64,000 nt of DNA, taken from positions 9,472 through 73,471 of the IMG/VR virus record IMGVR_UViG_3300047160_003234; one strand, written 5' to 3'. Positions 27,685 through 63,039 of this stretch are shown piece by piece. Within the stretch, counting starts at the first letter, position 1. Every line of letters begins with the position of its first letter. Position numbers and translations under genes: made by a program. The notes beneath the pieces are model-generated. The model saw nothing but the letters and a program-made list of their open reading frames with translations. It had not been told where the DNA came from and made no database searches. This stretch comes from a virus.

Positions 27685-29797
27685 CAGGAACGCCGAGATT
27701 GCCGCCCCATTCGCCACCGAACTTGGATAGTCCCGGTGCGACTGGATTAGTGGCGTTGGCGCGCAGAAAGGCGTTCGTACGATATAGCGCATTCATCATC
27801 CACGGATGTCTGGCGGCGTAGGTCACCGCTCTATTGGCGACCGCCGGATTGGGAGAGACGAGTTGGCGCGCGATCTGCTCCATCACTCTCGCGTTCTGAG
27901 TGGTGCGATATCTATTCATCACTCCTAGAAAAGCGCCCCCTGCGGCGCCCCACGCCATGTTGGCCGCGGTCTGCCCCCAAGTTGCGTTCTCCGGCGTTTT
28001 CTCGAAACCGAGGCCAGCACCCACGAGACCTCCGCTGATAGGAGCGCTAAATCCAGTGGCGATGTCGTGCAGCAGGCCGCCAGATGGCCCGGCCGCCTCT
28101 CTTGCCGCCGCCGTTATCTGCTGCGCGGTGGTCGAATTGCCCATGATCTTGGCGCGGGCCATGTTCATTGCGTCTTCGCGGAGCAGATAAGCATAGATTT
28201 GATTCGCTCGATCAGGCCCTAGCCCCATCGCAAGCTTCTGCCGCATCGCTTCGTTGTTGAACATGTTGACGATGTCGCGCGTGTCGCTCGGAGTCTCCGC
28301 CGCTTGAATGACCTGAGAAGCGAGCCCGCGAGCGAACATCTCCTTCTCGGAGTCGGAGTAGCCGTTCCATTTCGCTTCGATCTTGGGCGCCGCTTTCTTC
28401 GCGCCAAAATAATTCTCGCCGTTCTCTAGCGCGCCCTGAAGACGGAAGACGCGGGCCGCGTTGCCGCGCGCCTGTTCGTATGATGGCATCGCCTGCTCAA
28501 GCTCGTCGATCAGCATATCCTTGATGCCGCCGATGTCGCGGGCGTCATCGAGATTGCCGCTGTTGCGGGCCGCGCTGATCCTGTCGTCGAGAGAACGCTT
28601 GACCTGATCCCAGAATCTCCCGCTGGGCAGTCCCACGAAGTTCCCTTGCGCGTCGGTGCGCGGCGCCCAGCCTGTTGCAGTTTCGACGAAGGGATTCTTC
28701 GGGATCTCGAATCCGTTTTGCACCGCATAATTTGCGGCCTTCTTTTGCGCCTGCCCGATTGCCGATTGAACGTCTGGCGAGCGCATCAGATTGGCGAGCC
28801 CAGCGCTCCAGATGCCGGGGTCGCCTTCGGCAAAGGCCTGCGCGTAAGCGGGATCGTTGATCACCTTCGCAGTCCGCCTGATTCCCATCCGCGTCTCTTC
28901 GGGATCGAGACTGCCGGTGAACATGCCGGAGACAAAGTCGGAGAACCGAGATGCTTGCGACCGATAGCGCTCCATCAAGGGCGTGGCGAGCGTCTCGGCA
29001 GCGGTCGGCGAGATATTGGCGGCTGTCCTCCCCAAAGTACGGAGGTTCTCACCGCCCACATCGATAGGCATCGTCGGCTGACCAGCGGCGCGAGCAGCAG
29101 CCATATCTGTAGGCGTCAGGGTCGGCGTGTCGATGGCTGTCTTTTCGGCAATACGGCGTGCAGCTTCAGTCGCTGGATCGTAGAGGCCCAAAGAACGCCC
29201 AGCCAAGCCAGCCGCCTTGCCAAGCGCTCTGCCTAGCGGCTCGGCCGCCGCGCCGCCGATGCCGCCCAGCCCTGCGCCCAGCGCCGTTGCCGTGGGATCG
29301 AAGCCCGTATCAGCACCGGCATACAGGCCGCCGTAGCCAGCGCCTACCGCGCCGTAACCAAGCAGTGGCGCAATTCTGGCAGCTGATGGAACCGCAGCGG
29401 TTACGCCACGAGAAACCCAGCCTGCGGGACCGGCGAATGGCAATGCTCCCGCCGCGCCTATCGCAGCCCCGGCGTAATAGGGGATCGCCCCAGCTTGCGA
29501 CGACTCGCGAGCGATGCGGGCGCGGTTCTCAGCGTAGCTCGTGCTGGGAGGTTCTGCGCCGAGCGCCCATTTCGGCAGAACTTTTGCCGCAGCAGTCTCT
29601 AGCCCGGCTCCAATCGCATCCGCTCCCGGTATCACTTCCGCGAGCCCGAGGCCGAGAGATCTCCCGAAGCCCGGTCTGTCTCCTCCAGCGCTCTCCGCTC
29701 CCGGCGTCACCCAATCGTCCTTACCGGCGCCGCCGCTAGGAAGAGCTGGAGCGCCGCCGCCGGAACCCGGCGTCACCCAATCGTCAACGGGACTCAT
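27674..29797 (-). CDS. Internal virion / DNA ejection protein
   Basis: 707 aa, Ala/Gly-rich, hydrophobic segments, follows the giant ejection gene. Confidence 0.75.
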   Translation of the reverse strand: MSPVDDWVTPGSGGGAPALPSGGAGKDDWVTPGAESAGGDRPGFGRSLGLGLAEVIPGADAIGAGLETAAAKVLPKWALGAEPPSTSYAENRARIARESSQAGAIPYYAGAAIGAAGALPFAGPAGWVSRGVTAAVPSAARIAPLLGYGAVGAGYGGLYAGADTGFDPTATALGAGLGGIGGAAAEPLGRALGKAAGLAGRSLGLYDPATEAARRIAEKTAIDTPTLTPTDMAAARAAGQPTMPIDVGGENLRTLGRTAANISPTAAETLATPLMERYRSQASRFSDFVSGMFTGSLDPEETRMGIRRTAKVINDPAYAQAFAEGDPGIWSAGLANLMRSPDVQSAIGQAQKKAANYAVQNGFEIPKNPFVETATGWAPRTDAQGNFVGLPSGRFWDQVKRSLDDRISAARNSGNLDDARDIGGIKDMLIDELEQAMPSYEQARGNAARVFRLQGALENGENYFGAKKAAPKIEAKWNGYSDSEKEMFARGLASQVIQAAETPSDTRDIVNMFNNEAMRQKLAMGLGPDRANQIYAYLLREDAMNMARAKIMGNSTTAQQITAAAREAAGPSGGLLHDIATGFSAPISGGLVGAGLGFEKTPENATWGQTAANMAWGAAGGAFLGVMNRYRTTQNARVMEQIARQLVSPNPAVANRAVTYAARHPWMMNALYRTNAFLRANATNPVAPGLSKFGGEWGGNLGVPAMQ

Positions 29798-62791: not shown

Positions 62792-63039
62792 TTTCTCCTC
62801 CCCTGTCGCCCGAGATTGGGCGCTTTCGCCGCCCCGCCGCACGCCAGAGGGTGCGCGTGACGCCATTTCGGCCCCTTGGCCTGTCTCTTCTTGCCTTTGG
62901 CGGTCAGTTCACGGGTTCCCGGCTTCATTTCTCCCGCGCGCTGAAGACCGGCCGTCGCCGCGGCGTACGGATTCACGCCGGGAGACTCTTTCTTTATATG
63001 CTGGACCGCGCGCTCCCAGATTTCTGGCACTGGCGTCAT
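62788..63039 (-). CDS. Small basic phage protein
   Basis: PEIWERAV...YAAATAGLQRAG...LTAKGKKR. Confidence 0.7.
   Translation of the reverse strand: MTPVPEIWERAVQHIKKESPGVNPYAAATAGLQRAGEMKPGTRELTAKGKKRQAKGPKWRHAHPLACGGAAKAPNLGRQGRRN

Follow-up and report, generated by a model that had tools for sequence, protein, structure and literature searches.

Why does one short peptide ending in Gly-Gly recur in six late proteins of an uncultured podovirus, and what does it do there? The question arises from a stretch of viral DNA of 64,000 nucleotides, called the window below, which comprises bases 9472-73471 of the IMG/VR record IMGVR_UViG_3300047160_003234, a sequence of 73,471 bp with direct terminal repeats. 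An earlier note, made from the letters of the window, had pointed to paired x-A/Q-x-GG motifs in seven proteins, and had proposed that a phage protease cuts these precursors at the Gly-Gly during head maturation or that the motif targets proteins to the capsid. The analysis presented here indicates that the peptide, hereafter the tag, is real, specific and ancient and is placed at the joints between protein modules. Its role is best read as that of a proteolytic processing site separating fused or swapped modules, a reading to which we assign a probability of about 0.5.

Definition and specificity of the tag

Alignment of the copies defines a unit of 8 residues, R-x-[G/H]-[R/K/F/Y]-[A/Q]-x-G-G, which some copies extend upstream as P-x-[L/M]-G-R-x-G-R. 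In the twin form two units are in direct contact, with a period of 8 residues; because the units abut, the Arg after the first Gly-Gly is also the Arg at position -6 of the next unit (positions are counted back from the first Gly of the Gly-Gly). The tagged proteins, all encoded on the minus strand, are a 2259-amino-acid (aa) ejection polyprotein, an 1173-aa polyvalent protein, the portal, small Gly-rich proteins of 243 and 142 aa, and a 239-aa protein with two related modules. Every motif that the earlier note listed in these six proteins and in two small open reading frames (ORFs) is present. Its count of seven proteins becomes six solid ones, the two small ORFs (KKRGG, LACGG) being weak for the Gly-Gly motif.

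Composition does not account for these copies. With the regular expression [RFYLHM][AQ].GG, the 2259-aa protein has 12 tags where shuffles of the protein predict 2.1, the 243-aa protein five against 0.19, and the 142-aa protein three against 0.10. Six Gly-rich tail-type proteins, which together hold 76 GG dipeptides, contain 1 match against about 2 expected; thus, the motif is not equally frequent in other Gly-rich proteins of the phage. When all six frames of the genome are searched with a strict expression, R..[RKFYH][AQ].GG, 14 of the 20 matches fall inside the six late proteins, which make up 4,991 of 146,942 six-frame residues (3.4%). These proteins also contain all matches to the twin form (7/7) and 24 of 69 matches to a loose form. 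Among 1,143 Gly-Gly contexts, tallied without bias from 44 large ejection proteins encoded on related contigs, enrichment is 3.4-fold for Arg at -6, 4.2-fold for His at -4 and 3.5-fold for Phe at -3, and Ala at -2 is enriched as well. Val and Ile are enriched after the Gly-Gly, as are Val, Ile and Leu in the family of the two-module protein. Specificity of the tag for internal or ejected virion proteins is supported.

At the DNA level, the 14 strict copies have a mean identity of 0.56 (maximum 0.79) over 24 nt, and at positions with identical residues the codon is shared in 191 of 403 cases, where codon usage for Arg, Ala and Gly predicts 0.25-0.42. Since there is no DNA repeat and synonymous codons vary freely, selection acts on the peptide. 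A recombination joint in the DNA might be suspected from the polyvalent proteins, in which modules are swapped at the tag; however, the copies lack extended DNA identity and use synonymous codons freely. An origin by chance from Gly-rich composition is excluded by the shuffle and six-frame controls. A DNA-level repeat and a composition artefact were dropped on the mean identity and on these controls, and a joint in the DNA or chance retains next to no likelihood.

Tags at the joints of the ejection polyprotein

The 2259-aa protein (29794-36573) was identified through phrog_4287, phrog_6121, an S74-like domain and tblastn. It begins with a "DNA ejection protein" domain and an S74-like chaperone (residues 9-391), of which phrog_4287 covers residues 9-388 and phrog_6121 residues 311-391. 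The Pfam S74 match at residues 325-373 scores 18.1 bits, under the cut-off of 22, and its site reads F-S-D-V-R-T-K-E-N. A Gly/Pro-rich middle (residues 396-1609) carries the tags. After it come a transglycosylase-like region (residues ~1640-1760) and a C-terminal domain that is conserved. By tblastn, internal virion proteins of other podoviruses align with residues 1641-1754.

The first tag, RGHFQMGG (residues 396-403; 35365-35388, at about 35370), lies directly after the S74-like domain and starts right where the phrog_4287 and S74 homology stops (residues 388-391). It is found in 5/5 orthologs, a tag being scored as kept if one occurs within 12 alignment columns. At the other end of the middle, the tags AGLFARGG (residues 1592-1599) and RRPFAEGG (residues 1602-1609; together 31747-31800, at 31782/31752; 3/5 orthologs) stand just upstream of the transglycosylase-like region. 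Of those in between, the twin RAAFGG-RIGFFNGG (residues 483-497; 35083-35127, at 35112/35088) is not positionally conserved (0/5), and the twin HGGHAHGG-RIGRATGG (residues 803-818; 34120-34167, at 34149/34125) lies in a region that aligns poorly and is in register in 0/5. The tags TAGRAEGG (residues 999-1006) and RPGYQGGG (residues 1011-1018; together 33520-33579, at 33561/33528) are kept in 4/5 and 5/5 orthologs. Next come GLFAGGG (residues 1156-1164) and RPGFQDGG (residues 1167-1174; together 33052-33108, at 33090/33057), in register in 0/5, then the twin QGPMARGG-RIGRASGG (residues 1419-1434; 32272-32319, at 32301/32277; 3/5) and the single tag RHGFQGGG (residues 1475-1482; 32128-32151, at 32136; 3/5).

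Two phages have the same domains as separate genes. In Brucella phage Tb and Sulfitobacter phage phiGT1, the homologue of the S74-side part is a gene of its own that ends at the position of the first tag, and the peptidoglycan hydrolase protein and further injection proteins are also encoded separately. The loose expression finds no tag in nine Tb proteins; its two matches in phiGT1 both fall in one of 11 late proteins. The two-module domain described below was not found in Tb (12 kb examined) or phiGT1. In addition, two orthologs of the 2259-aa protein, both from one sample (L009 and L012), have a decayed S74 domain, and in these M-A-R-G-G occupies the position of the self-cleaving Ser.

Tags in the polyvalent protein and the portal

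The 1173-aa polyvalent protein (54245-57766; Pfam and PHROGs) adjoins the portal. Its variable N-terminal effector part is joined by a twin tag to a C-terminal part that is conserved and contains DUF7178 (residues 985-1095), the sole Pfam match at E<=0.01; judging by their motifs, residues 200-500 may be ADP-ribosyltransferase (ART)-like. The twin RDFRWTGG-RVGFQFGG (residues 529-544; 56135-56182, at 56164/56140) is kept in 5/5 orthologs. When six polyvalent orthologs are aligned, R537, G543 and G544 belong to the 41 columns, out of 2,156, that are invariant. The six phages have unrelated effector parts at the N-terminus, which nevertheless all converge on the invariant R...G-G and then continue into the shared C-terminal part.

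The portal (58354-61143; 929 codons; phrog_1216 and tblastn to portals) has a long C-terminal tail with one tag, RTGRAHGG (residues 883-890; 58474-58497), 41 residues from the end and kept in 5/5 orthologs. The tag separates a variable linker from a conserved C-terminal mini-domain of 40 residues. Among the orthologs, identity is 0.80 over the tag, 0.12 over the 20 residues upstream and 0.65 downstream. The earlier note had expected copies at domain boundaries that persist while their flanks diverge, and the portal mini-domain, the polyvalent joint and the end of the S74-like domain bear this out.

Some further features of these proteins were seen. The last 40 residues of the portal (58354-58473) read P-Y-G-x-A-R-R-A-P-D-G-x-F-Y-V-x-H-P-x-T-G-x-Y-F-R-I after the tag in all six phages, and the extreme C-terminus of the 2259-aa protein looks somewhat like this mini-domain. 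The N-terminus of the 1173-aa protein (57600-57766) and those of three orthologs (L090, L094 and L095) carry a repeated D-x-D-V-x-P-V-[E/D]-x-x-P-F. This peptide is common to polyvalent proteins whose next domains differ, and could be another short signal, perhaps one for packaging. In the same three relatives (G001-G003), the N-terminal effector module is unlike that of the window and presumably resembles a SleB-type cell-wall hydrolase; each module is fenced by tags. The polyvalent protein of G002 contains, in addition, an inserted module that carries H-E-G-Q-H.

Small tagged proteins and natural C-termini

The 243-aa Gly/Arg/Pro-rich protein (53242-53973) contains five tags, the twins RAAGG-RIARANGG (residues 72-84) and RASGG-RTNLAKGG (residues 113-125) and a single RASGG (residues 209-213), each in register in 3-5 of 5 orthologs. 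The 142-aa Gly/Arg/Lys-rich protein (45337-45765) also has five, all in register in 4/4 orthologs: YARGG (residues 8-12), RAKGG (58-62), the twin KKTGG-RIGRKKGG (73-85) and P-N-M-G-R-P-G-R-AGGG (94-106). Throughout this family, one tag lies 8-14 residues from the N-terminus. In both small proteins, P-x-[L/M]-G-R-x-G-R directly precedes A-x-G-G.

The upstream half of the extended tag also occurs as a natural C-terminus. An 83-aa protein (44938-45189) with the weak KKRGG ends K-P-H-L-G-R-Q-G-R-K-stop, and an 84-codon ORF (62788-63039) with LACGG ends A-P-N-L-G-R-Q-G-R-R-N-stop; coding of the latter is uncertain, because it overlaps the ORF at 62561-62866 in a different frame. Both thus share a C-terminal P-x-L-G-R-x-G-R that stops 1-2 residues before the end. 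In four relatives, portal-proximal frames end with P-S-[LM]-G-R-x-[GA]-R, either exactly at the Arg (two frames) or after up to 2 further residues. Across related loci, P-x-[L/M]-G-R-x-G-R was found in 23 distinct contexts: in nine it is followed by [A/Q/K]-x-G-G, in four by a stop within <=3 residues (in two of these exactly at the Arg) and in ten by other residues. Free ...G-R ends of the kind that a cut between Arg and Ala would give therefore exist naturally; equally, they could be an independent C-terminal motif.

The copies in the head module are strongly basic (G-R-P-G-R-A-x-G-G-R-I-x-R) and are found in small basic proteins and in the DNA-facing tail of the portal, as would fit Arg/Gly-rich boxes, RGG-like or AT-hook-like, that bind nucleic acid and tie internal proteins to the packaged DNA. 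However, the copies in the ejection protein and in tape measures (G-F-Q-x-G-G, F-A-T-G-G) are not basic, and an invariant Ala/Gln together with Gly-Gly is not known as part of the RGG or AT-hook consensus. DNA binding is thus a very improbable role for the tag.

Conservation among relatives

Relatives were fetched by the family of the 239-aa protein, 567 of 600 matched stretches encoding a relative; ejection proteins were compared in six close relatives, and head modules were fetched for five. The portals of the five are 63-70% identical to that of the window. All five keep the tag in the same six protein families, and it was not found in their capsid, scaffold or other head proteins. The ejection orthologs of the six relatives (2,069-2,488 aa) have 6-12 tags each. 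In each of the five, the portal has one, the polyvalent protein 2-5 and the 243-aa family (orthologs of 281-601 aa) 5-10, while the 142-aa orthologs, present in four relatives, carry 2-5 each. A tag was present within the 12 columns in 97 of 150 ortholog checks, most misses falling in the middle of the giant protein, which does not align. The polyvalent protein of one relative ends 4 residues after a tag.

A two-module protein family accompanies the tag

The 239-aa protein (37733-38452; defined by family alignment and an AlphaFold2 (AF2) model) is built of two pseudo-repeats, G-S-Y-V-L-P..V..G-E-G-N and G-G-E-Y-V-I-P..V..I-G-x-G-D. A tag precedes each module (RFQGGG, residues 50-55; AHGG, residues 172-175), and NASGG is also present. 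R75, D77, Y88, N102, E193, H213 and D217 are the invariant polar residues of the family. The predicted local distance difference test (pLDDT) score of the model exceeds 90 in both modules.

The family is large, with 4,209 representative clusters (50% identity) at E<=1e-3 and 1,155 at E<=1e-30. Among 144 representatives there are 396 tags against 35.7 expected (11-fold), with Ala at -2 in 96%. The two-module domain is often the C-terminal part of polyvalent proteins of up to 1,500 residues with ART-PolyVal, which was found in the distant members P0201, P0084 and P0189; in distant long members, tags such as R-A-D-G-G and Y-A-D-G-G lie between all domains. Of 76 IMG/VR loci with an S74-type ejection domain, 71 also have the two-module domain, and the other five may be incomplete upstream, so that these loci provide no usable negatives and only Tb and phiGT1 serve in that role.

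Pfam has no name for this family. The AF2 model found no solved relative in the Protein Data Bank with Foldseek (best E 4.3), and its best Z in a VIA-align search of 48,161 chains was 2.8. In BFVD it matched only uncharacterised proteins of uncultured phages, and in the ESM Atlas unnamed viral clusters, with a row for "crAss cargo protein 1" at 0.83, below the lead threshold. Among GenBank phages, the 239-aa protein matched only the uncultured phage MW202675.1. The 239-aa protein is a candidate reader of the tag or a candidate enzyme acting on it.

The core of the module, [V/I]-A-A-G-G-E-Y-V, itself fits x-A-x-G-G-x-V, which brings up a structural alternative: the tag could be a Gly-Gly beta-turn with short flanking strands, a degenerate remnant of the G-G-E-Y-V hairpin, that acts in extended ejection proteins as a hinge or spacer and has no specific partner. 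The enrichment of V/I/L after the Gly-Gly and the twin period of 8 residues would suit such an element. However, Arg at -6, R/K/F/Y at -3 and Ala at -2 in 96% of copies exceed what a turn needs, the Gly-rich tail proteins with their many Gly-Gly dipeptides do without the tag, and the tags are located in low-complexity sequence with little predicted order. We therefore consider a mainly structural role improbable.

The tag in tape measure proteins

The same arrangement is found at the C-terminal end of tape measure proteins (TMPs) of siphoviruses. Lambda gpH contains H-F-A-T-G-G (residues 731-737), then V-H-R-G-E-F-V-F ... I-G-V-G-N, and G-Y-A-T-G-G (residues 777-782). The layout [F/Y]-A-x-G-G ... 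H-x-G-E-[F/V]-V is common to the TMPs of lambda, the T1-like phages Sushi and Motto, and Acinetobacter phage Acba_13. A tblastn search with gpH residues 700-853 matched 1,047 phage records, many of them over residues 745-785 only and at 75-85% identity; the corresponding protein search gave only near-identical Escherichia coli prophage TMPs among the matches listed. In T5 pb2, 1,219 residues hold two matches to the regular expression. One of these starts exactly at R1127 (V-P-R-A-E-G-G), and H-G-T-E-V-V follows the tag at a distance of 13 residues.

The C-terminal region of the TMP is cut during assembly in both T5 and lambda (PMC10038345, PMC12617516). For T5 pb2, Linares 2023 places the maturation cut after R1127, between R1127 and A1128 (PMC10038345). 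Residue 1127 is the Arg of the tag, and this cut therefore falls inside the tag, before the Ala. Boulanger 2008 placed the site after V1148 +/-1; R1127 is also a trypsin site, and an authors' reply on DT57C urges more work (PMC11937520). V1148 lies inside H-G-T-E-V-V, so that both proposed sites are within the unit formed by tag and module. In the T5-like phage AKFV33, peptides cover the protein up to R1134, and residues 1142-1164 have been assigned a "zinc metallopeptidase motif" (PMC3326045); with an estimated offset of ~7 residues, these positions would correspond to the same Arg and module as in T5. In lambda, gpH is cut in its Gly-rich C-terminal region, the site and the enzyme being described as unknown in the 2025 Ur-lambda paper (PMC12617516).

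The earlier note had cited the C-terminal cleavage of lambda gpH, and the likeness to this region is borne out by the gpH sequence. If each tag is a processing site, as is most likely, it would correspond to the device at the C-terminal end of siphovirus TMPs. Direct comparison of the 239-aa protein with gpH gives BLASTP E values of 0.09-0.17 on the same stretch. The hidden Markov model of its family scores gpH at a weak 2.7 bits, and 0 of 500 shuffles reached the real score.

A proposed processing site at module joints

Taken together, these results suggest that the tags mark flexible joints in proteins that are inside the podovirus head and of which most are probably ejected: the portal tail, the polyvalent effector, the two small basic Gly-rich proteins, the 239-aa protein and the 2259-aa polyprotein. 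If the Linares map of T5 pb2 is a guide, cutting would take place before the Ala or Gln (X|A-x-G-G) and would leave a new C-terminus in ...G-R and a new N-terminus in A-x-G-G.... Candidate cutters are a host protease and, in trans, the two-module protein. That cutting occurs in this phage, at which bond, when and by what enzyme, we infer. Processing is the best single explanation because of the position of the tags at joints, the comparison between fused and split genes, the substitution at the S74 Ser, the natural C-termini and the presence of both T5 sites within the unit. In particular, the natural ends lie at the Arg of P-x-L-G-R-x-G-R or 1-2 residues beyond it, and an R|A cut would give the internal copies an end at this Arg.

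Two parts of the cleavage proposed in the earlier note find no such backing. A cut strictly after the Gly-Gly was dropped, as the sole mapped site, the disputed one of T5 pb2, lies before Ala (R|AEGG). A phage protease that acts during head maturation is unsupported because none was found in the scans: in searches with Pfam, PHROGs and NCBIfam, neither the head module nor the rest of the genome showed a recognisable protease, whether of the prohead type or of another. Head-module proteins of 347, 191, 209, 151 and 439 aa belong to no protease family in these scans, although a divergent protease could escape them. JAB/MPN domains are Gly-Gly isopeptidases, as in lambda gpK; Prok-JAB (PF14464) had no match in six frames of the 73,471-bp genome, while control genomes were detected. 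HExxH and HxxEH motifs are absent from the late proteins of the window, the only H-E-G-Q-H being that of relative G002.

Several points weigh against processing. In addition to the lack of a recognised protease gene, no cleavage product has been seen for this phage or any relative. Cutting at every tag would leave peptides of 8-50 residues from the 142- and 243-aa proteins and from the twins, a pattern for which a multivalent binding protein is no worse an explanation than a polyprotein. Tags 41 residues from the end of the portal, and 4 residues from that of one relative's polyvalent protein, are odd places to separate modules. The joint absence of tag and two-module domain is known from only two phages, Tb and phiGT1. 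The T5 map is disputed, and V1148 lies in the H-G-T-E-V-V module and not in the tag. Finally, the sequence link between the two-module family and the TMP module is weak, and the T5 C-terminus is not aligned.

Some of these points would be accommodated if the tag were an uncut docking or packaging signal, that is, a linear motif in disordered linkers with one common partner, several copies providing avidity. Possible partners are the two-module domain, the inner wall of the capsid, and the portal or core; binding would recruit cargo to the head and hold it there. In this phage and its relatives, all proteins with the tag are expected inside the head. Those of 142 and 243 aa, which cutting would reduce to tiny peptides, have it in multivalent form, and docking explains the copies near the C-termini of the portal tail and of the relative's polyvalent protein better than processing does. 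Since the tag occurs together with the two-module domain, which is C-terminal in many polyvalent proteins, this domain could be a delivery handle. A precedent is the short capsid-targeting signal used by phage P1 DarB (PMC9024508). However, the same tag and layout occur in tape measures, tail proteins that never enter the head. The AF2 model does not dock the first tag of the 239-aa protein onto the modules (pLDDT <50), and the natural C-termini at Arg and the T5 map at R1127 favor a cut. Docking, which corresponds to the targeting signal of the earlier note, is thus rather unlikely.

If the tag is a processing site, the two-module family may supply the enzyme. The G-[S/E]-[Y/F]-V module could be a small peptidase, unrecognised before, that cuts X|A-x-G-G tags, acting in cis in tape measures, whose C-termini hold a single copy of it, and in trans on the tagged polyproteins of podoviruses, where it forms a stand-alone two-module protein; it is also the C-terminal domain of thousands of polyvalent proteins. 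We regard this reading as doubtful. Earlier work described the region of T5 pb2 that contains the module as a zinc metallopeptidase motif with muralytic activity (PMC3326045, PMC10038345). If the peptidase reading is true, lambda gpH and T5 pb2 would mature by autocatalytic cutting, and the tag would be a universal "cut here" code by which injected modules are fused, swapped and released.

Genomic context

The gene set is of podovirus type, with an SU10-type adaptor, internal virion/ejection proteins and a podovirus-related portal; no tape measure family was matched in the Pfam, PHROGs and NCBIfam scans or by tblastn of the phage's proteins. The late genes, on the minus strand, encode the portal, the DUF7178 protein, capsid-related pieces split up by HNH and EndoVII genes, SU10-type adaptors, an 811-aa structural protein and the 2259-aa protein. 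The closest GenBank phage is the uncultured MW202675.1, with a portal 47% identical by tblastn.

Six HNH/EndoVII homing-endonuclease-like genes on the minus strand (37200-37736, 42966-43451, 47064-47726, 48528-49322, 52646-53245 and 57769-58323) adjoin or separate the capsid, adaptor, portal and ejection genes of the structural module. The terminase large subunit (973 aa; genome bases 2067-4988, minus strand), which lies outside the window, contains Hint, intein-splicing and LAGLIDADG domains (Pfam) and appears to be interrupted by an intein. Two SU10-adaptor-like paralogues (PF24175; 41770-42537 and 43455-44159, both minus strand; E 3e-16 and 1e-10) have a 141-aa ORF and an HNH gene between them. 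The PHROGs for major head proteins are matched only by a 264-aa ORF (47608-48402). Its neighbour, the 439-aa protein (45779-47098), from which an HNH gene separates it, is without a family match and had no match among GenBank phages. Within the head module, a 90-aa protein (52159-52431, minus strand) is Tad2-like (Thoeris anti-defence 2) according to Pfam (E 8.6e-23).

Implications and comparison with known systems

Cleavage of TMPs and polyvalent proteins are both already known. Within the limits of the literature searched, neither the shared tag, spread over portal, cargo and ejection proteins, nor the two-module family has been described. The unit of tag and module gives concrete residues and masses for the cuts in lambda gpH and T5 pb2, and it is common to tape measures and to head-internal proteins of an abundant lineage of uncultured podoviruses. 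The family defined here is large and unnamed, accompanies the tag and forms the end of many polyvalent effector proteins. Were the tag a code for cutting or delivery, it would explain how phages freely fuse and exchange injected enzymes, and it could serve to load chosen proteins into phage heads.

Short peptides common to several virion proteins have parallels. The cysteine proteases of adenoviruses and asfarviruses cut several virion core precursors inside the particle at a consensus that ends in Gly-Gly. The likeness is that several virion proteins share a peptide with this ending. However, position -2 is Ala or Gln here, not any residue after a hydrophobic P4, such proteases are not among the matches in the scans, and the T5 map puts the cut before the Ala, not after the Gly-Gly. 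In T4, the gp21 prohead protease processes the internal IP proteins, and short capsid-targeting signals are used. Capsid targeting and prohead processing in T4 and P1 share with the present case a short peptide common to head-internal proteins, and the tag 8-14 residues from the N-terminus in the 142-aa family is like a removable leader. In contrast to T4 and P1, there is here no recognisable prohead protease, and the tags are internal and repeated rather than a single N-terminal leader.

Like the polyvalent proteins that Iyer et al. 2017 describe in conjugative elements and phages, the 1173-aa protein is a multi-domain effector beside the portal, and its modules are swapped between relatives. 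These authors propose that polyvalent polypeptides are processed by fused peptidases, such as a zincin-like metallopeptidase or an assemblin-like domain (PMC5512222). In contrast, the Pfam and HExxH scans found no such fused peptidase here. In the text of that paper, "glycine" and "linker" do not occur and the tag is not described (PMC5512222).

A further parallel is the TMP unit of T5 pb2 and lambda gpH. The tag is shared, as R-A-E-G-G in T5 and as H-F-A-T-G-G and G-Y-A-T-G-G in lambda; in the TMPs, an H-x-x-E-[F/V]-V module lies ~13 residues downstream of it, and TMPs are ejected ahead of the DNA. However, this phage is without a tape measure: its tags are distributed over six head-internal proteins, with up to ~15 in one, and instead of H-x-G-E-F-V it has a separate two-module protein with G-S-Y-V and G-G-E-Y-V.

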